From IMG/VR virus record IMGVR_UViG_3300028840_000472: a stretch of 64,000 bases of DNA. One strand, written 5' to 3'. This DNA is from a virus. Taxonomy: Duplodnaviria > Heunggongvirae > Uroviricota > Caudoviricetes. The notes under the pieces are model-generated. The model did no database searches and was not told the origin of the DNA. It saw only the letters and a program-made list of their open reading frames with translations. Of this stretch, positions 30,813 through 46,959 are shown piece after piece (position 1 is the stretch's first letter; each line of letters starts with the position of its first letter). The translations under genes were made by a program, and so were the position numbers.

Positions 30813-32792
30813 TTAGAGATCTTCCATCGTCCCCCAGTTCGGCCCGCGCTCGCCGTCCACGACGACCGGGATCTTCAGCTGTATGCAGTTTTCCATGATG
30901 TCGACCAGTTCCCGAAAACCTTCTGCAGCTTCCTGTGTGCCGCTGTCGCTGAAGTTCAGTTCGTCGTGGACCGTGATCAGGGGGATCCCTGTCGCGTCGA
31001 ATACGCCGGCCCTGTGCGCGTCACGCATGGCTTTCTTCATCATGTCAGCGGACGATCCCTGCAGGACCGCGTTCAGTGCCGCGTGTGTGCCGGCGCGCTG
31101 GATGTTCGACCCGTATTCCCTGATCGCGTCTTCCTTCGGCAGCGGTTTCATTTTGTCGCGTTCGGCCTTGTCCATGAAGTTCGCCGATTCGAACAGATCG
31201 AAACGCCGACGCCGACCGAGTACCGTCTTCACGTACCCGCGATTCTTTGCCGTGCTGATTGCAAGGTCGTACGTCTTCTTCACGAACGGGACGCCTTCGT
31301 GGTACGCCTCGAACAGCGGCGTCGCTTCCTTCACGGTCATGCCAAGATTTGCAGCCAGTGCTGGCACGCCCATCCCGTAGCACAGCCCGAAGTTAATGTT
31401 CTTCGTCGGCTTGCGGTCCAGCATGATCGCAGTTATCACGTGGATAAGTTCGCGCGTCATCTGGTGATAATCTGTCTTCGGATCCTTGCGATAACGTTCG
31501 CGCGCTTCGTCTGCACCGGGACCGACAGCGAAGTGTGAAAGCAAGCGATATTCGATCTGCGAGTAGTCATAGCGACGCCAGTACGGATCGCCGGGATCTG
31601 GAATAAACAGCGAACGGATAAGCGGCCCGATAATCTTGTCGCGTGATGGTATGTTCTGCAGGTTCGGGTTCGATGAACTGAAGCGCCCGGACACTGTGCC
31701 GTTTTCGTCACCGCGTAACGGATGGAACTGCGCGTGTATGCGGCCATTGATCACGCTGCCCAGTATGTGCCCGTCGATGAACGTGCCGATCGTCTTGTCC
31801 AGACTGCGGACCTGTACGATCATCTGCGCAAGTTCGCTTTCGTGATTTTCCAGCCACGCCTTCGTGAACGACGGCTTCTTCGTTTTCGCTGTGTGCGGGT
31901 AGTGTATGCCTTCGGCATCGAATGCACGCGCGATAGTTTCTGCTGCCCATACGTCGACCGGCGCGCCCGCCATCTTGTTCAGCTTCTTCTGCAGTTCCGC
32001 CTGTTGCCCGCGCATCGTTGCGCGTACTTCATCCGCGCGATCGACGTCGACTGCGACACCGTGCCAGCGCATTTCCAGCAGCAACGGCAGCAGATCCGTT
32101 TCCAGCTGAAACAGTTCCAGCAGTTCCTGCTTTTCAAGTTCGCGTCGCTGCAGATGCCAGATGCGCAGCGGAAGATCGACGTCGCCTTCAGCGTACGGAC
32201 CGACCAGCTGCACCGGTGCGCGATAAATATTCCCGGCCTGATCTTTACGCGTGAACTTTCCGCCGTACGTATCCGCCAGCCAGTGATACAGATCGTTGTC
32301 TTTCTTTCCTTCGTTCAGCCACTGACGCGCCAGCTTTTCCAGCGCGTAGGAAAACGCGTTTTCGTCTAGCAATGCCTGCGCGCTTTGCACGTCGATCAGA
32401 TCGCCGGCAACGTTCACGCCGTCAGCGCGCAGCATCGATACGTCGTACATCAGGTTCGCGCCGATCTTCGGTTGATGCGGACGCGACAGTTCTTCGCGCG
32501 CCCAGCGAAGCACCATTTCCGGGTCCATGTTTTGATGCCCGAATTCGTGCCGCATGGGGAAGTACCAGCGCCCGCCGTCGTCGGTGCCGACCGCGATGCC
32601 GACGATCTTGCCGTCGCCGCGTATGTCGCCGGGTCCGTCCTGCTTCAGTCGCTTGTCCTTGGTTTCGACGTCGATCGCGATTTCCTTCGCGGCATCCAGC
32701 CGGGGAAATTGTTGCGGCGGCGTCCAGCCTGTGTCGGGAACCTTCGCTGCCAGATCTTCACGCGACAGCAGCATACCCTGTTCGCCCTTCAT
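30813..32792 (-). CDS. polA: Family A DNA polymerase (Pol I-like) with N-terminal 3'-5' exonuclease domain
   Basis: Exo motif IAIDVETKD. Polymerase motif B KNINFGLCYGMGVPALAANL and motif C LITVHDELNF. 659 aa. Confidence 0.85.
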   Translation of the reverse strand: MKGEQGMLLSREDLAAKVPDTGWTPPQQFPRLDAAKEIAIDVETKDKRLKQDGPGDIRGDGKIVGIAVGTDDGGRWYFPMRHEFGHQNMDPEMVLRWAREELSRPHQPKIGANLMYDVSMLRADGVNVAGDLIDVQSAQALLDENAFSYALEKLARQWLNEGKKDNDLYHWLADTYGGKFTRKDQAGNIYRAPVQLVGPYAEGDVDLPLRIWHLQRRELEKQELLELFQLETDLLPLLLEMRWHGVAVDVDRADEVRATMRGQQAELQKKLNKMAGAPVDVWAAETIARAFDAEGIHYPHTAKTKKPSFTKAWLENHESELAQMIVQVRSLDKTIGTFIDGHILGSVINGRIHAQFHPLRGDENGTVSGRFSSSNPNLQNIPSRDKIIGPLIRSLFIPDPGDPYWRRYDYSQIEYRLLSHFAVGPGADEARERYRKDPKTDYHQMTRELIHVITAIMLDRKPTKNINFGLCYGMGVPALAANLGMTVKEATPLFEAYHEGVPFVKKTYDLAISTAKNRGYVKTVLGRRRRFDLFESANFMDKAERDKMKPLPKEDAIREYGSNIQRAGTHAALNAVLQGSSADMMKKAMRDAHRAGVFDATGIPLITVHDELNFSDSGTQEAAEGFRELVDIMENCIQLKIPVVVDGERGPNWGTMEDL

Positions 32793-33784
32793 TGATCGCG
32801 TACGCCCATGATCGCCCCGTCGATGTTCGACTTGTTCGTGAAACCCGACGCCGACGGATACGCCTTCACGTCAAGATGTGTCGCAACGCGCAACACGCGC
32901 GCCAGTAGATCCGCGCGCCATCGGCTATCTTCTTCCGGCAAGCCGTTGACCTGAACGAACGCGTCAGCGTCCCCGCTTTCGTTGTGGTACGCGCTGACGA
33001 CACCGCCGCCGATTTCGATACACGGGAACGACTTCTCACAGAACGGCGTCAGATCTTCCAGTGCCTTCAGAAGCCCGTCAGGGACCGCTGCAGCGTCCCT
33101 GCAGTCAGGGACAACCCTGTCAAGGTCAGGCACGTCGCCGGCGTTATACAGCGCCGTGCGCAGCCATACGTCGCCTATTTTGAACGTCGCCGAACTGTCC
33201 GACGCCCGGATCGCTTCGATCGGCTTATTGATTCGCAGCAGTTCATGAACGGCGGCATCGGGCAGCGCCAGCGCCAGCCCCGGATCCAGATCATCTTCGA
33301 AGATCCGCACCATCGTCATGCCGTCGGTGCCGTAGATGTAGCCCTTGCGTATGACGACGCCGCGCATCCAGATCCGCCCGCTTTTCTTGTCGGCAGAAAA
33401 CGCGCTGGCGATCTTCAGCGAATCGATCAACCCGTGTTCGAGTGTGTACTTCTCGCCTTCAGGAAACTGTCGCGGGAAGTTAATCGACGGGACCAGCGGG
33501 ATCGATGCCTTGAAGCCCTTAGACGTCACCTGAAGCCGTTTCGCCGTAGCCTTGACCTGTGCGTCGTCCCGCTTGTTAAGCGCCGCCAGCAGCTTGTCAG
33601 CCGGGACACAGATGCCCTGCAAATCGAACGGCGATGGCATGTCGACAGCGACGGCGTTATTGACGACCTGCATCCGCGACGGACCGTCGTCTGCGACGCG
33701 ATAAAACAGGACGCAACGCAACGCGTCATGTTCTGCTTTGTTGTTCACGACAGCCTTGATTATTTTCTTATGTAGCGCTTCCAT
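32789..33784 (-). CDS. DNA polymerase sliding-clamp-like protein (DnaN/beta-clamp fold, 331 aa)
   Basis: Segment ...SINFPRQFPEGE...RIWMRGVVIRKGYIYGTDGMTMVRI matches the beta-clamp ...FP.lp...R..L.GV.l....l..vATDG.RLa pattern. 4-nt overlap coupling with polA. Confidence 0.5.
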   Translation of the reverse strand: MEALHKKIIKAVVNNKAEHDALRCVLFYRVADDGPSRMQVVNNAVAVDMPSPFDLQGICVPADKLLAALNKRDDAQVKATAKRLQVTSKGFKASIPLVPSINFPRQFPEGEKYTLEHGLIDSLKIASAFSADKKSGRIWMRGVVIRKGYIYGTDGMTMVRIFEDDLDPGLALALPDAAVHELLRINKPIEAIRASDSSATFKIGDVWLRTALYNAGDVPDLDRVVPDCRDAAAVPDGLLKALEDLTPFCEKSFPCIEIGGGVVSAYHNESGDADAFVQVNGLPEEDSRWRADLLARVLRVATHLDVKAYPSASGFTNKSNIDGAIMGVRDQ

Positions 33785-33787
33785 GTG

Positions 33788-34411
33788 TCAGTCCTCGAAC
33801 TTGTCCAGCGTGCAGTTGAATATACCCGGACCGTCGTCCACGGTAGACGCCGCGACACAGATGTGATCGAAGTCCAGCTTGTCATCGTCGACCAGTCCGA
33901 ACGGCATCCCGGTTTCTGTCGCGATCGCCATGCGGAATTCGTTTATCGTGAAATCCTCCGACGCTGCAGTAGCTGCTTCGTATGCGTACTGTACATTGTC
34001 ACCGTACAAGTAGACACCAGTATCTTCTTCGACCCACAGCTGCTTCGCGTGCACGATGTTATCGTCTTCGACGTCGTACGGAAACGCCGCGACGTCTGTT
34101 ATTGTTCGCTTGTTATTCTTTCTCCCCCAGCTTACCCGACCGGCGACGATGTACGGATCATCGCCGAAGAAGTATGGAAACACCACCCACGACCCGACGT
34201 GTACAGCTGACAGCTGCCAGTGCCCGCCATTATCGCTGCCTGTCAGTTCGTTAAGGTTCAGCAAGCAACGCCTGTGCATTGCTTCGTATAGCGCACTGCC
34301 CACAGTCGGAAGGTTAGCCACGATGTTGTCCCCTGTAATAGATCGGGCGGATAGGGTTATAGCGCTACACGTCTGTAGCTGCGTGCAGGGATCAGACTTA
34401 ACTGATCCCAC
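33788..34411 (-). CDS. Hypothetical protein (up to 207 aa; start uncertain)
   Basis: ORF track. Confidence 0.35.
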   Translation of the reverse strand: MGSVKSDPCTQLQTCSAITLSARSITGDNIVANLPTVGSALYEAMHRRCLLNLNELTGSDNGGHWQLSAVHVGSWVVFPYFFGDDPYIVAGRVSWGRKNNKRTITDVAAFPYDVEDDNIVHAKQLWVEEDTGVYLYGDNVQYAYEAATAASEDFTINEFRMAIATETGMPFGLVDDDKLDFDHICVAASTVDDGPGIFNCTLDKFED

Positions 34412-34444: not shown

Positions 34445-34996
34445 TTAGTCCCTGAATATCGGCGCGTCCATTCCTGCCGGCAGTACAAGGTAGTATTTGC
34501 CTGCGCGGAACTGACGCCCGTACCCCTTGCGAACCAGATTGTGATCACGCCAGAAACGCTTCGGATCAGGGTAGTCAGCGACTTTGCAAAGTTCTTCTAT
34601 TGTAGCACCGTTAGCCAGCGCCGCGACGACTTTGCCGATCCGGCTATTGCGACGCAGCGGCTTGACTTCGGCAACCTTTTCCAATGCGCCGACGTCCTTC
34701 GTTGCCTTCATCGAAATCGTACGATCGACGAACTGTGTGCGCGTCATCTTGTCGGCCAGCATAGCGATCGCCTGCACCTTGTTTGTGTCGACGCTGATAT
34801 GGCTTTCGTCAGATTCGCACAGGTTGTTATACAGTGCGACAATCTGTCCGATGGTCAGCGGGTTCAGGTCGTCGCGGTTAGCGTCTGCGATGTACCAGTT
34901 GAACTTCATGCGCCGCGCCATGTTGCCGGCGGCTGCACGTGTCGCAAAACGCGCCTTGACCTGCAGGGTGTCCAAGTTAATTAAATATGTCGGCAT
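34445..34996 (-). CDS. Hypothetical protein (183 aa)
   Basis: ORF track; GAGGACACGAACATG leader. Confidence 0.45.
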   Translation of the reverse strand: MPTYLINLDTLQVKARFATRAAAGNMARRMKFNWYIADANRDDLNPLTIGQIVALYNNLCESDESHISVDTNKVQAIAMLADKMTRTQFVDRTISMKATKDVGALEKVAEVKPLRRNSRIGKVVAALANGATIEELCKVADYPDPKRFWRDHNLVRKGYGRQFRAGKYYLVLPAGMDAPIFRD

Positions 34997-35050: not shown

Positions 35051-36031
35051 TTAGGCGACCAGCTTCAGTGCCATGTTATGCGCTTTCTGCTTCATGCGAT
35101 TGCCATCGCCGAACCAAGCACTGTTCATGCGGTTGTCGATCGTGCGTGTCTTGCGTTCGTGATCCGTGAACCGGGACACTGCATTGACCAGACCCCATGC
35201 TGTACCGCGTGCGCTGACCGTATCCTGACCGACACCATTGTGGAAGATGTCAACCATCGTAGCGATGCGACGCTGCACCTTGTTGTCCTCGACGTTGAAG
35301 CCTTCGTCTTCGGTGTCGTAGAACAGATCGACAAAGAATTCGACGATTTCCTTCTTGCCGACCTTGCGATCAGACAGCGCTTCGCTTTCTTCGATGTAGC
35401 GGGTCCACTCTTCGCTACCGATGTTCAGCTGCTTCTTCACAGTTTCAGCATCGAACACAGTGTGGTGCGGAATGCGGATGTCCGCCTTCTCGCCGTTCTC
35501 GCCGACTGCGAAGCGGAACGTGTTCATGCAAACAACACGAACAGAAGTTTCCGTCGCGATCGTCGACATGCGACCATCGTATGAAGTCGCCAGCATGATG
35601 TAGCGCAGCAGCTGGTCTTGACCCTTCAGACGGAATTCGTCGCCGGTCTTGGCAAGCGCCCAGATCCGCTGACCGCCGCGAAGACTGCCGGCTGTTTCCA
35701 TGTTGAAGCCGTGCGCTTCGATCAGTGACTTGTAGAAGTCGATCACGTCACGCGGCTGCACAATGTTGTAGCCTTCGTCGACTACGGACAGCACCGCCTT
35801 CGTATCGTCGCGAACCAGAACCTGCCGGCTGGGAACTTCCAGCGCGTCGCCGGTATCGGGATCCAGATACATCGCCGGCGCGCCGATAACGTTGTGATCC
35901 AGACCGGCAGCGATGCGCCACTTGTCAAGATCCGCGTCGGCATCCATGGGAACGCCTAGCCCGTGCCACGGGGTGTCGCCGAAGTATGCGATGTTCGCCC
36001 TGCCGTTACTCATATCGATTTCTGCTGACAT
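35051..36031 (-). CDS. DUF932-like phage/plasmid-associated protein (326 aa)
   Basis: Size and overall sequence pattern recalled for the DUF932 / TIGR03299 family. Promoter variant TTGACATCTATTC at 36099..36111 with an AAGGAG RBS. Confidence 0.4.
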   Translation of the reverse strand: MSAEIDMSNGRANIAYFGDTPWHGLGVPMDADADLDKWRIAAGLDHNVIGAPAMYLDPDTGDALEVPSRQVLVRDDTKAVLSVVDEGYNIVQPRDVIDFYKSLIEAHGFNMETAGSLRGGQRIWALAKTGDEFRLKGQDQLLRYIMLATSYDGRMSTIATETSVRVVCMNTFRFAVGENGEKADIRIPHHTVFDAETVKKQLNIGSEEWTRYIEESEALSDRKVGKKEIVEFFVDLFYDTEDEGFNVEDNKVQRRIATMVDIFHNGVGQDTVSARGTAWGLVNAVSRFTDHERKTRTIDNRMNSAWFGDGNRMKQKAHNMALKLVA

Positions 36032-39545: not shown

Positions 39546-40394
39546 TTAGAAGCCGGGAACATCCCCTTCTTCGTCGTCGTAACTACCCGCGCCAGACACG
39601 GTGCCGCCCGAAGGTTCGTCCATGTCATGCTGCACGGTAGCAGCGCCAGACTTGACGGCGTCACGGAACGCGCGCGCTGTCTGGTAGATACGCTGGTCGT
39701 CAGCGCTTTCTTCGTCAAGGAAACGAAGGTGCGCGATCTTCCAGCCCGACCACGACCCCTGATCATTCGATTCAGGTACGGTCGTGCACTTGAACACACT
39801 GGCAAACATCGCCGGGTTGTACAGTTGTCCGTCCTTGCGCTTCTTCAACAAGTTCTGCATCTGTGTCATCCAGCGCTTCGACTTCTTCTGCTGCGTCGAA
39901 GACATTGTCACGACACACGGATGCGTCGCCATGTTTTCATCGACACGCAGAACGTAATGTATACGCGTGTCTACCAGCTGGTTTCCTGTCGTCTGAAGTA
40001 TGTCGCGATTTTTTTCATCGCGTTCGCACTTCTTCAACAGTTCCACGCCTTCTTCCGGTGGATACTCCGCAACGAATCCGCCGCCGTCTTCGCGCTTCTT
40101 CCATTCAACGAACACGCGCCGGTAATGACACGGGACAAGATTAACGCCTGTTTCCTTGCCTTCGAATGTCTCTTCCAGTACGTTGTCGAAGAACTCGCCA
40201 GCGCGTGCGTCTTCGATATACTCGCCTTTTGTTTCGTCAAGCTGCGGCGACATTTTTTGCAGGATACGAAGGAAAGGAATCGCAAACGAATCGCGATCCG
40301 CTTCTTCGAAGCCGGCACCGGCATCGTCTTCAAATGACACAGCGCCTTGTACCAGTGCTGTTTCCTTTGCTTCTGCTATTTCTGTTTCTGGCAT
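39546..40394 (-). CDS. ssDNA-binding-like protein (DUF2815-type) with acidic C-terminal tail ending in F
   Basis: C-terminus ...YDDEEGDVPGF mimics the SSB acidic tail (DDDIPF). Sits in the replication module. Confidence 0.45.
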   Translation of the reverse strand: MPETEIAEAKETALVQGAVSFEDDAGAGFEEADRDSFAIPFLRILQKMSPQLDETKGEYIEDARAGEFFDNVLEETFEGKETGVNLVPCHYRRVFVEWKKREDGGGFVAEYPPEEGVELLKKCERDEKNRDILQTTGNQLVDTRIHYVLRVDENMATHPCVVTMSSTQQKKSKRWMTQMQNLLKKRKDGQLYNPAMFASVFKCTTVPESNDQGSWSGWKIAHLRFLDEESADDQRIYQTARAFRDAVKSGAATVQHDMDEPSGGTVSGAGSYDDEEGDVPGF

Positions 40395-40451
40395 TTCAAT
40401 TACTCCTTGAAGGTGTCCGCATTTTTATCGCGCTGCGAACTTCGACGCGTG

Positions 40452-41006
40452 TTACTTGATTACAGACTGCGTGACAAAATGAACGCCGAACAATTCCAGC
40501 GGAACGTCAACACCGTTCGCGATCATTTCCTTGATAGCAGCCTTCACGGATCCAGTGTTCACTATTTCGGTTATGCTGTATTCACTATACCCGTTCGATT
40601 CTAAAAACTTTGCGAAGTTTTCCGCCGCGTTACGATCGCCGCGATCGAATACGTATTCGATGTCGGTCTTCACTAGCGACGCGTGTTCATTATCGATCAG
40701 CCACTGACATGCCGCCGCTTTGTTCTTATTCGCGATCGATGCGTACATGTCTTCGCGTATTTCAACGCGTGACCCATCCTGCAGAACGACCTGCGACAAA
40801 CCGATTTCCTTCATTAAGTCGGGCAGATCTTTTTCGCGTGTCGTACGCAGTTCATTCTTCGCTTTCTTTAATTCTTCTTCCAGCAGCGTGACGCGCTTTT
40901 CCTGTTGCTGCTGCATCTTGGCAAGGTTCGCGACGCGCTTCAGATCGTTGTCTGTATAGCTCGCGTTATCGCTGAACGAATCTTCTTCAAAGCTTACTGT
41001 GTCCAT
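40452..41006 (-). CDS. Hypothetical protein with N-terminal coiled coil (184 aa)
   Basis: ORF track. Confidence 0.45.
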   Translation of the reverse strand: MDTVSFEEDSFSDNASYTDNDLKRVANLAKMQQQQEKRVTLLEEELKKAKNELRTTREKDLPDLMKEIGLSQVVLQDGSRVEIREDMYASIANKNKAAACQWLIDNEHASLVKTDIEYVFDRGDRNAAENFAKFLESNGYSEYSITEIVNTGSVKAAIKEMIANGVDVPLELFGVHFVTQSVIK

Positions 41007-41010
41007 GGTC

Positions 41011-41361
41011 TTAGCTCCTGATGTTTATTTGCGTCGCTATGTAACGGCGCTGCCTGCCGTCCCATATCAGCGTCTTATAGCGGCCCCTGTTGTTATCATG
41101 TGCAACGCATGTCGCTGCGCTGAACGCGTTAGGATCGCCGCACGAAACGATGTAGTCGTCGTCGCTGAAGTCTTTCATTTTCTGCTTCAATTTCTGGACC
41201 CACGGTGCCGGCGATAACATTACCTTCCCCGGCGGCAGCAGAACTACTATTTCGCCGTAAGCGCTCGCTGGTGTCAAGTCTATTGTGGCTTCGAATTCCC
41301 CTGTCTGTTTGTTGCGACGTGTTGGTATTTGCGGTACGTAAACAATCGGCCTTTTATCCAT
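41011..41361 (-). CDS. Hypothetical protein (116 aa)
   Basis: ORF track. Confidence 0.45.
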   Translation of the reverse strand: MDKRPIVYVPQIPTRRNKQTGEFEATIDLTPASAYGEIVVLLPPGKVMLSPAPWVQKLKQKMKDFSDDDYIVSCGDPNAFSAATCVAHDNNRGRYKTLIWDGRQRRYIATQINIRS

Positions 41362-45767: not shown

Positions 45768-46391
45768 TCAGACGTGTGAAATGATGAAATCCCACCATGC
45801 GGCATTTTTCTTGTGCGCCCATGCACTGTGCCCGCTGACTTTGGGTAGCTCCCCTGCTGCTACCTTGATGCTGTCGACGTCGGTCGCATACTGCACGACC
45901 CGGTCGTCTGTCCCGGCGAATCCGGTGTTCCCCATTTCGCCCCAGTGGTGCTTCTGCTGCCAGCGCCACGGCAAGACACCCGTGACCCGCCGCCAGTGCT
46001 TGCCGGCAACCGTCGCCAGATCCCCGGCGTTATGGAACACCGCCCAGCGTTCGACACTGGCCGGCGGCTTCCACTTCTTCGCCAGCGCCGGCTGTATCAG
46101 GACAATGCGCCGCACCGGCGCGCCCAGCCGGCACAGATGCGCGATCAACGCCGCGCCGTTCGAGAAGCCGACCAGCGTGTCGCCCATGCCGACCGACGGA
46201 AGGATCAGCCGCGCAAGGTTTGAATTGTTGCGCGTTGCGACAAGATCCCAGTGACCGTAGTCATGCACGCGACAGATGTGCCCCGCCTTTTCTATCGCGT
46301 CGCGAAGGACAGCGATCTTCGGTTCGCCGACCTTGTGCCGTTCGTTGAAGCCGTGAATAAGATGTACCGTCTTCATGTCGTTATGCCTCAT
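45768..46391 (-). CDS. Alpha/beta-hydrolase-fold serine hydrolase (esterase/lipase-like)
   Basis: HGFN oxyanion-hole-like motif near the N-terminus and GFSNGA (GxSxG nucleophile elbow); 207 aa. Last gene of the late operon, next to the lysis genes. Confidence 0.55.
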   Translation of the reverse strand: MRHNDMKTVHLIHGFNERHKVGEPKIAVLRDAIEKAGHICRVHDYGHWDLVATRNNSNLARLILPSVGMGDTLVGFSNGAALIAHLCRLGAPVRRIVLIQPALAKKWKPPASVERWAVFHNAGDLATVAGKHWRRVTGVLPWRWQQKHHWGEMGNTGFAGTDDRVVQYATDVDSIKVAAGELPKVSGHSAWAHKKNAAWWDFIISHV

Positions 46392-46959
46392 ATCGTCGTC
46401 GTATGGTTTCCAGCACTTCCAGCTTGATCTGACAGATCCGGCCTTCCGACTTGCCGCAGAAGTTCCCGATCTCTTTCAGCGTGTACCCCTCGAAGAACAA
46501 CAGGCGCAACAGCGCGCGCTGCCATTCGGGTAGTTCCCTTGTTATATTCTCGAAGTCAATCCGCAAGTCTTCCGTCTTGGTAAAGTCCGGCGTCGGCGGA
46601 ACCATTTCGTCGCTTGTGAATAATATGTCGCGTTCGGATCTTTCCCGAACAAAGTCGATCGCTGCACCGCGCACGCGCGCGTAACTGAAGCAGCGAATGT
46701 CGACGTCGTCAGCATCCAGATTTCGCTGCAGATACTTCCTGTAGCATTTCAGAAATGCCATCCGCGATTCCTGTATCGCGTCGTCTTTCTTTGCGTCGAT
46801 TACGTTTGCCGGGAAGATTTTTATCGCGCGCATGGCGACTGCCTGAATCCAGCTGTCGAACTCGCGCAGCATTTCGCATTCGCTCTTCCTGTGTGATGTA
46901 TCGTTCGTCGGGCCAGTTGAGAAGCCGTCGCCCACAGCACGGACACTTGTCGTCGTCAT
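46381..46959 (-). CDS. Phage-encoded ECF-type sigma-70 family factor
   Basis: Region 2-like AIQESRMAFLKCYRKY...FSYARVRGAAIDFVRE. Region 4 HTH LPEWQRALLRLLFFEGYTLKEIGNFCGKSEGRICQIKLEVLETIRRRY. Confidence 0.75.
   Translation of the reverse strand: MTTTSVRAVGDGFSTGPTNDTSHRKSECEMLREFDSWIQAVAMRAIKIFPANVIDAKKDDAIQESRMAFLKCYRKYLQRNLDADDVDIRCFSYARVRGAAIDFVRERSERDILFTSDEMVPPTPDFTKTEDLRIDFENITRELPEWQRALLRLLFFEGYTLKEIGNFCGKSEGRICQIKLEVLETIRRRYEA

Follow-up and report, generated by a model that had tools for sequence, protein, structure and literature searches.

The stretch of DNA analysed here (IMG/VR record IMGVR_UViG_3300028840_000472; hereafter the window) comprises 64 kb of tailed-phage DNA from an uncultivated lineage and holds nearly all of its genes on the minus strand. 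Two adjacent genes are the subject of this study: an open reading frame (ORF) for a 331-residue homologue of the bacterial beta clamp (32789..33784, minus strand) and an ORF for a family-A DNA polymerase (PolA) of 659 residues (30813..32792, minus strand). Both lie where an earlier note on this DNA had placed them. The note had also described a 4-nt overlap, in which the polymerase was said to overlap the start of the clamp gene. The shared ATGA is indeed present (32789..32792, minus strand), but the direction has to be reversed: in the order of transcription the clamp gene is upstream and PolA downstream, and it is the TGA stop codon of the clamp gene that overlaps the ATG start codon of PolA (...GAT CAA TGA / ATG AAG GGC..., with 4 nt common to both genes). 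This overlap corresponds to the longest-ORF reading of the polymerase gene and is probable rather than certain, because an alternative in-frame start at Met7 (32772..32774, minus strand) also fits. The ATG of Met7 lies 14 nt past the clamp stop, and a start there would give the N-terminus MLLSREDLAAKVPDTGW (MLLSREDL...), which is collinear with P0126 and P0128 and fits the N-termini of the closest PolA relatives (MLFSKEQL.. and MLFTTEEM..). With either start the two genes are tightly linked. The clamp and PolA are probably translationally coupled, and matched amounts of the two proteins would be expected.

By profile, fold and family, the 331-residue protein is a real homologue of DnaN-type beta clamps. 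A search of PHROG assigns it to family 947 ("DNA polymerase processivity factor") with an E value of 2.3e-37, and residues 7-330 align to positions 17-365 of the 368 positions of the profile. Searches with the single sequence are weak: Pfam and NCBIfam gave no match; with phmmer, the best match in the PDB had an E value of 0.03 (4trt), and a word-indexed protein search gave three matches. The family alignment was seeded with homologues from GenBank phages, and the resulting profile of 87 relatives matched the beta clamps of the PDB with E values of 5.9e-9 to 2e-3. Alignment of this profile with E. coli DnaN by hhalign gave a probability of 95.5%, with the alignment ending at domain II (the E. 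coli sequence used has the right length). The homology to DnaN is thus visible at the profile level only. By the earlier note's own criterion its reading would fall if the predicted fold were not that of a clamp, but structure prediction does give a clamp fold: the AlphaFold2 (AF2) model has a mean predicted local distance difference test score (pLDDT) of 91.9 and a predicted template modeling (TM) score of 0.88, its pattern of helices and strands is repeated three times, in agreement with three DnaN-like domains, and the top 50 matches found by Foldseek in the PDB are all bacterial beta clamps (E ~2e-18, TM score of 0.77-0.81), covering all three domains. Full-length matches include the beta clamps of E. 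coli and Pseudomonas aeruginosa, and the top viral structural matches are models of phage "beta clamps." The identity to bacterial clamps is about 16-19%.

The two peptides in which the earlier note had seen a DnaN signature, NFPRQFPEGE (residues 102-111) and GVVIRKGYIYGTDGMTMVRI (residues 142-161), are both present, and they are genuinely DnaN-like because hhalign pairs them with the E. coli DnaN segments ADFPNLDDW and ...RTVATDGHRLAV. The second peptide is part of a longer segment, residues 137-161 (RIWMRGVVIRKGYIYGTDGMTMVRI; 33302..33376, minus strand), that aligns to R152...T172-L177 of E. coli beta, where these residues line the peptide-binding cleft. In this alignment R137 is paired with R152, T153-M158 with T172-L177, and P219 with P242. 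P219 belongs to a further segment, VPDLDRVVP (residues 218-226; 33107..33133, minus strand), which hhalign places on F241-P249 of E. coli beta, P242 being located in subsite 1 of the cleft. Finally, the C-terminal strand GAIMGVRDQ (residues 323-331; 32792..32818, minus strand) was matched by eye to the C-terminus of E. coli beta (...VVMPMRL), which closes the cleft; this equivalence is by inspection only. The segments that line the predicted cleft hold several residues that are invariant or nearly so in the family: across the 87 members there is no variation at R137 and hardly any at W139 and T153, and P219, G323, and G327 are likewise invariant.

The partner of the clamp was described in the earlier note as a Pol I-type polymerase, and Pfam agrees. 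The protein matches DNA_pol_A (PF00476) with an E value of 2.1e-64 over residues 253-654 and the 3'-5' exonuclease family DNA_pol_A_exo1 (PF01612) with 1.6e-6 over residues 31-217, and it has no 5'-3' exonuclease domain. PHROG 17 is matched with an E value of 5.7e-116, and the AF2 model has a pLDDT of 93.6. All six motifs of the family could be located, Exo I, II, and III as well as Pol A (DYSQIE), B (RxxxKxxxFGxxYG), and C (HDE). Judged by these intact catalytic motifs, the window PolA is an ordinary proofreading family-A enzyme, with up to 69% identity to its relatives. The best NCBIfam model is phage_DpoZ_1 (NF038380), reached with 357.5 bits against a cutoff of 500. A reading as a DpoZ polymerase, that is, an aminoadenine-incorporating enzyme of a Z genome, was rejected given the score under the cutoff and the lack of a PurZ homologue anywhere in the window; the protein represents a sister lineage to DpoZ and not a Z-genome polymerase. 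Two PolA homologues that are 59-63% identical to that of the window, P0125 and P0134, carry Pfam intein-splicing (PF14890) matches; in P0125 an insertion follows the conserved ...GTVSGRF stretch within the polymerase domain, and P0134 also has an HNH match.

Relatives of the clamp are widespread in phages. With tblastn they were found in 99 GenBank phage records at 25-32% identity, including members of the Queuovirinae (CAjan, Seurat-like phages, PaMx25, NP1, and VpKK5), Iggy, Achromobacter phage ART, Microcystis phage Me-ZS1, and Stenotrophomonas and Variovorax phages. In IMG/VR, 122 stretches were confirmed to carry clamp relatives, 80 of which were kept for comparison, and an exhaustive hidden Markov model (HMM) search of 1.84 billion cluster representatives retrieved 1,012 clusters (50% identity) at E<=1e-30, a number that rises to 1,954 with the threshold relaxed to E<=1e-10. 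More divergent clamps are encoded upstream of polymerases of the same PolA clade in Salmonella phage SE4, Erwinia phage RF1, Sphingomonas phage Birtae, and Dinoroseobacter phage vB_DshS-R5C (R5C); these were found only with the family HMM (E values of 1e-27 to 1e-57) and had been missed by BLAST at E<=1e-5. In all seven GenBank records examined, the genes are arranged in the order preQ0 genes, dpdA, clamp, polymerase. All seven already have a label for the clamp ("DNA polymerase processivity factor," "replicative clamp," or "Pol III beta subunit"). The same holds for most of the GenBank records read when those of the divergent clamps are included; three records call the clamp a "hypothetical protein." No dpdA gene was seen in the stretches read of SE4, RF1, and Birtae, and R5C is a less clear case, with an annotated QueE-like gene just upstream of the polymerase. 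The order of clamp and then polymerase is kept with or without DpdA, the DpdA-less cases being the window, the metagenomic contig L097, SE4, RF1, and Birtae.

In sum, the window belongs to a large family of phage clamp-polymerase pairs with existing annotation, in which it is a divergent case without DpdA. Its clamp has a best identity of 38%, to that of L097, and its subclade is small, lacks dpdA, and shares the synteny DUF932 gene, 183-residue gene, ..., clamp, PolA, 122-residue gene. The earlier note had considered the pairing of a clamp with PolA to be unusual and to imply a distinct replisome architecture, which is overstated in view of 99 GenBank records, 122 IMG/VR stretches, some 1,012 clusters, and the existing annotation. 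Its premise, that PolA phages usually have no clamp, was true of a census published in 2011, in which PolA phages of 40-140 kb were typically without clamps (PMC3201878). The rule has been overtaken by later sequencing and is no longer a good guide.

The synteny of clamp and polymerase is near-universal. Among the first 90 loci fetched through the clamp, the first large gene after the clamp encodes a polymerase, and lies on the clamp's strand, in every locus with enough downstream DNA. Junctions could be compared in 73 distinct loci, 28 of which have a 4-nt overlap and 8 a 1-nt overlap, so that 36 of the 73 are coupled; a gap of more than 100 nt separates the two genes in 23. The stop/start overlap is the most common single junction type in the family, and it couples 26 of the 33 partners that are of the PolA type. 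About half of the loci have a family-A partner polymerase, and the rest have one of family B. No Pfam family matches the non-PolA partners, BLAST shows no similarity between them and the window PolA, and their best relatives in the PDB are Sulfolobus PolB1 (E value of 1.9e-5) and E. coli Pol II (0.009). Examples of the divergent family-B partners are found in CAjan (L001:6867-8852), in PaMx25 (L002:7009-9186), and at L004:6144-8213 and L007:6441-8621.

What these polymerases of two families have in common is an N-terminal module, which consists of the peptide M-(x)-R-x-D-[AS]-[ILV]-G-[LMF]-[FW]-W-[EQ]-D, a basic linker of about 17 residues, and the element P-P-x-P-x-x-W-x-x-P. By sequence, the module appears to have moved between the polymerase families. 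In most relatives the peptide reads MRxDxIGMFWED, and the version of the window is MKGEQGMLLSRED. A regular expression for the peptide (D..G[LMFIV][FWL]W.[DE]) occurred 85 times in the 2.1 million residues of the six-frame translation of all loci, and in each of the 85 cases the peptide opened the gene that comes next after the clamp. Among the 120 PolA homologues nearest to that of the window in a metagenome collection, 94 have the canonical peptide, and most of the others have an L-F-[WY] variant. In P0133 and P0127 the peptide (VTGFFWEE.. and VLFSVEEM.., respectively) is found in frame just upstream, behind GTG-type starts; the gene calls of these two homologues (L098:5887-6001 and L099:1734-1872) start too late. 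Furthermore, PolA relatives for which no clamp was detected also have no peptide. In Acinetobacter phage SH-Ab 15497, whose whole genome was covered, PolA begins at the exonuclease domain; in Pseudomonas phage Ab18 (50 of 56.5 kb covered) PolA retains only the second element; and in contig L100 (about 14 kb of the contig covered), whose PolA is 54% identical to that of the window, neither clamp nor peptide was found. We found no description of the shared motif in the open-access literature, and three features of the family are apparently new: the division of its partner polymerases between families A and B, the N-terminal peptide common to both, and, in relatives, the Q-x-x-L-F ending of DpdA.

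In the subclade of the window, the module is shortened to (E)QDSLFTPEQL, MDASLFTPEQL, MSLFTAEQL, MLFSKEQL, or MLFTTEEM, followed by four or five residues up to VPDTGW. The N-terminal sequence of the window PolA reads MKGEQGMLLSREDLAAKVPDTGW. Comparison with relatives identifies residues 2-13, KGEQGMLLSRED (32754..32789, minus strand), as a candidate clamp-binding peptide. Its core, QGMLL (residues 5-9; 32766..32780), has the form Q-x-x-L-L and continues as Q-G-M-L-L-S-R-E-D, and the peptide MKGEQGMLLSREDL, with L8 and L9, is the candidate ligand of the clamp. The earlier note had suggested a search for a clamp-binding motif in PolA and co-folding of the clamp with the C-terminus of the polymerase; a candidate does exist, but at the N-terminus. 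Residues 1-7 are the only segment of the AF2 model of PolA with a pLDDT below 50 and would form a flexible and exposed tail, as expected of a tether. The second conserved element, VPDTGWTPP (residues 18-26; 32715..32741, minus strand), was recognised by the same comparison and lies before Exo motif I, only four residues behind the first motif, so that the basic linker is almost entirely gone in the window. The PolA of Ab18, for which no clamp was detected, has a similar element (ADWTPP), which makes VPDTGWTPP a probable part of the polymerase core and not of a contact with the clamp.

Bacterial clamp-binding peptides follow the consensus QL[SD]LF. The canonical [AS][IL]G[LM]F of the relatives resembles this consensus, as do QDSLF, ASLF, and MLF of the subclade. 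A family-A precedent is PolI of Mycobacterium tuberculosis, which binds the canonical cleft of its beta clamp via QLSLLDD, residues 457-463 (bioRxiv 10.64898/2026.09.19.751633). It is a family-A enzyme with a Q-x-x-L-L clamp peptide, comparable to the window PolA with its candidate Q-G-M-L-L. In M. tuberculosis, however, the motif is internal, in the Klenow fragment, and the clamp is cellular, whereas the candidate motif of the window is N-terminal and the clamp is encoded by the phage.

The strict synteny, the dedicated peptide, and the frequent stop/start overlap argue for a cognate pair, and we consider it likely that the phage clamp is a ring that tethers PolA via a flexible N-terminal peptide, with coupled expression of the two genes and with loading by the host. 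In our model, the clamp would form a head-to-tail homodimeric ring around primer-template DNA, and the N-terminal peptide of PolA (core Q-x-x-L-L) would dock in the conserved hydrophobic cleft between domains II and III of the clamp and thereby make the polymerase processive. The host DnaX complex would load the ring, and coupled translation would keep the amounts of clamp and PolA in step. The analysis shows the fold and homology of the clamp, the intact polymerase motifs, the coupling of the genes, the near-universal synteny of clamp and polymerase, and a peptide confined to polymerases that follow such a clamp; from the whole we infer ring formation, the contact of peptide and cleft, the higher processivity, and host loading.

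A different role of the clamp has to be considered. It might serve host takeover, by competing with the host beta clamp or poisoning it, sequestering the clamp loader or Pol III, or recruiting host factors, and its proximity to PolA might reflect mere coexpression in an early or middle operon. The cleft elements that are recognised by the host delta subunit and by host polymerases are conserved in the phage protein, a phage loader is lacking, and homologues of PolIII-beta sometimes occur in viral genomes without a polymerase (PMC4889955), all of which would fit such a role. However, a clamp that merely shares an operon with the polymerase would not be expected to keep strict synteny with polymerases of two unrelated families over some 90 loci, to be joined to them so frequently by a stop/start overlap, or to be followed by polymerases that alone carry a dedicated N-terminal peptide, and we therefore regard this explanation as very improbable.

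It is also imaginable that the clamp and PolA do work together but that the peptide is meant for another protein. Short terminal peptides tether helicase and polymerase in phage T7, which sets a precedent, and the N-terminal peptide of PolA could dock on the SF1/UvrD-like helicase, on the archaeo-eukaryotic primase (AEP), or on the host beta clamp, while the phage clamp meets PolA elsewhere or has other clients. The same helicase and primase genes are indeed present in some relatives, for example, at L010. However, the set of helicases and primases differs from one peptide-bearing locus to the next; the neighbor that stays constant is the clamp. Furthermore, the peptide has the composition of a beta-clamp-binding peptide, and the clamp-less PolA relatives are without it. 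These findings make a different docking partner quite improbable.

Several points weigh against the model of a cognate, peptide-tethered pair. The contact of peptide and cleft is deduced from comparative genomics, and none of the motifs found is more degenerate than that of the window, which has L-L where others have L-F or F-W. The start of PolA, Met1 or Met7, is uncertain. Peptides of the clamp-binding type could also address the host beta clamp and not that of the phage. The window clamp by itself reaches no Pfam or NCBIfam DnaN model. As for loading, no clamp loader was found in the 64-kb window, in which there is no DnaX-like match, and with 16-19% identity to bacterial clamps, recognition of the phage protein by the host loader is not assured. 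Finally, one gene of R5C (L093:6562-7482) is annotated as a DnaX-like clamp loader, and a Walker A motif is present in it.

The question of loading also bears on the shape of the clamp. In the window, Walker A motifs are present only in the UvrD-type helicase and the terminase, and the ORFs of the replication module that have no assigned function contain no AAA+ domain according to Pfam. The phage protein could thus be a loader-independent, non-ring subunit like UL42 or UL44 of herpesviruses, which would hold PolA as a monomer or a C-shaped dimer on DNA. In addition to the lack of a loader in the window, this is in line with the finding that more than half of viral processivity factors come without a loader (PMC4889955), and the linker rich in lysine and arginine in the polymerase module of most relatives could touch DNA. 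In the window, however, this linker is nearly gone, with four residues left between the motifs, and the full three-domain fold of DnaN is kept (TM score of ~0.8). The isoelectric point (pI) also speaks for a ring: loader-less, UL42-like direct binders of DNA have a raised pI, according to Kazlauskas and Venclovas (PMC3201878), and the window clamp is acidic (pI 5.92), as is its family (median of 5.63, with 2 of 87 members above 7). By this criterion the window clamp is compatible with a ring clamp, and a basic, UL42-like clamp is disfavored. Taken together, a subunit of the UL42 type is unlikely, and loading of a ring by the host DnaX (gamma/tau) complex is favored because the window has no loader and the clamp is acidic like ring clamps. 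Nevertheless, we advance host loading only tentatively and at somewhat less than an even chance; self-loading or a UL42-like mode of association is possible. Independence from a loader is in any case not a rule of the family, because R5C, which also encodes a divergent clamp homologue (L093:1642-2616) and a PolA of the same clade as that of the window, carries its annotated loader gene.

The polymerase may not be the only client of these clamps. In relatives of the window, the gene just before that of the clamp encodes DpdA, a DNA guanine transglycosylase, and 56 of 69 distinct DpdA sequences end with Q-x(0-2)-L-[FY] within three residues of the C-terminus, compared to 1 of 716 other ORFs of the same loci. 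Endings such as QMELF, QLGLF, VQELF, and QDSLFDL are found among loci L001-L087 (for example, at L001:4767-5687, L002:5066-6004, and L005:3916-4839). In its form and its place at the terminus this is a textbook beta-clamp-binding motif, and it suggests, for the family rather than for the DpdA-less window, that DpdA rides on a sliding clamp, that of the phage or that of the host, and it is independent evidence that one of these clamps is addressed by peptides of the clamp-binding type. The open-access literature yielded no paper that connects DpdA with a clamp. It is imaginable, and we would put it a little short of an even bet, that the phage clamp is a private tool-belt to which a family-A or family-B replicase is attached via the transferable N-terminal module and, in most relatives, DpdA via its C-terminal Q-x-x-L-F. 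The window would then represent a minimal, DpdA-less version with a shortened peptide, whose ring is loaded by the host or not actively loaded. If this is true, the 7-deazaguanine modification of phage DNA would be physically coupled to the replication fork.

Among known systems, the closest are the Queuovirinae and allied siphophages (Escherichia phages CAjan and Seurat, Pseudomonas phages PaMx25, NP1, and Iggy, Vibrio phage VpKK5, and Microcystis phage Me-ZS1), in which, as in the window, a PHROG 947 clamp (25-33% identical to that of the window) is encoded directly upstream of the polymerase, often with a stop/start overlap. VpKK5, Me-ZS1, and a Stenotrophomonas phage have a PolA of the clade of the window, with 48-53% identity. 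In phages of the Queuovirinae type the pair is located behind a 7-deazaguanine cluster of queC/D/E, folE, and dpdA, whereas the window is without these genes, and the window clamp is among the most divergent of the family. The polymerases differ at the N-terminus as well: QGMLL and a linker of 4 residues in the window stand against DxIGMFWED and a basic linker of about 17 residues in the partners of the Queuovirinae type. In the SE4/BP63 group of Salmonella and Escherichia phages, in RF1, and in Birtae, the gene for a clamp of about 330 residues directly precedes that for a PolA with 43-46% identity to the window enzyme. SE4 has the same 4-nt overlap, and its clamp is annotated as "DNA polymerase, beta subunit"; the N-terminal peptides of these polymerases (MSFLFDGFEG, LLFSDF, and MFFED) differ from that of the window.

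With the replicase of E. coli, the window shares the three-domain fold of the clamp (TM score of ~0.8), the aligned cleft elements, the acidic pI, and, as a candidate, a partner peptide of the form Q-x-x-L-[LF]. The partner in E. coli belongs to family C, however, whereas in the window it is a family-A enzyme with the candidate motif at the extreme N-terminus, no loader was found, and the clamp is about 35 residues shorter. The gp43-gp45-gp44/62 system of T4 and RB69 is similar to that proposed here in that a phage clamp tethers the phage's own polymerase via a short terminal peptide. Its clamp is a trimeric, two-domain, PCNA-like protein, its polymerase is of family B with a C-terminal motif, and it has its own loader, all unlike the window. 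In T7, the family-A polymerase gp5 is made processive by a separate accessory protein, as we propose for the window PolA; this accessory is host thioredoxin bound to an insertion in the thumb, with no ring and no loader, and is unrelated to the window clamp. The first reported cases of a PolA and a beta-type clamp in one phage were Ma-LMM01 and RSL1 (PMC3201878). Both exceed 150 kb and encode a loader subunit (a PolIII-gamma homologue), whereas the window represents a phage of the 60-kb class for which no loader was found.

We found no experimental work on any member of the clamp family in the open-access literature, and the clamp-polymerase family apparently is without experimental characterisation. 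It offers the case of one bacterial-type clamp family that is paired with a family-A or a family-B polymerase via one shared N-terminal peptide and mostly without a loader. If the contact of peptide and cleft is true, it would offer a simple and testable picture of how PolA is turned into a processive replicase by a phage of medium size, and it would explain the recruitment of DpdA to newly replicated DNA in the Queuovirinae. The pairs of clamp and peptide might also serve as orthogonal tethering modules.

The clamp and PolA are the last genes, in the order of transcription, of a tightly packed replication module at ~30.8-43 kb of the window. They are preceded by genes for an SNF2 helicase, three proteins similar to gp32, gp33, and gp34 of Pam3, the AEP primase, the UvrD-type helicase, a DUF932 protein, and two ORFs without assigned function. 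The DUF932 protein (35051..36031, minus strand; Pfam DUF932, E value of 1.8e-56) and the first of the two ORFs, for a protein of 183 residues (34445..34996, minus strand), are syntenic with L097, the closest relative; tblastn gave 58% and 35% identity, respectively, with the genes in the same order. The 183-residue protein is conserved in L097 and L099 with 35-39% identity. The second ORF, of 207 residues (33788..34411, minus strand), lies directly upstream of the clamp, in the place that dpdA occupies in most relatives. It has no match in Pfam, PHROG, or NCBIfam and no homologue in any related locus fetched.

No DpdA or Que genes were found in the 64-kb window by tblastn with seven DpdAs and with QueC, QueD, QueE, and FolE of CAjan, and a deazaguanine module of the Queuovirinae type (dpdA, clamp, polymerase) is thereby ruled out for this DNA. 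A scan of the remaining ORFs of the window for termini resembling clamp-binding peptides gave nothing convincing; only the 183-residue protein ends in ...APIFRD. Counts of promoters and terminators in a scan of 29.5-37 kb were at the level of chance, and megablast found no near-identical DNA in GenBank phages. Outside the replication module, the portal and large terminase genes are located at ~4.4-7.4 kb and the tail genes at ~49-60 kb. Two further observations concern other parts of the window. The three consecutive genes between the SNF2 helicase and the AEP primase (39546..41361, minus strand) match Pfam families named after gp32, gp33, and gp34 of cyanophage Pam3, and an ORF of 192 residues (46381..46959, minus strand) matches, with an E value of 7.5e-14, PHROG families whose annotation is RNA polymerase sigma factor.

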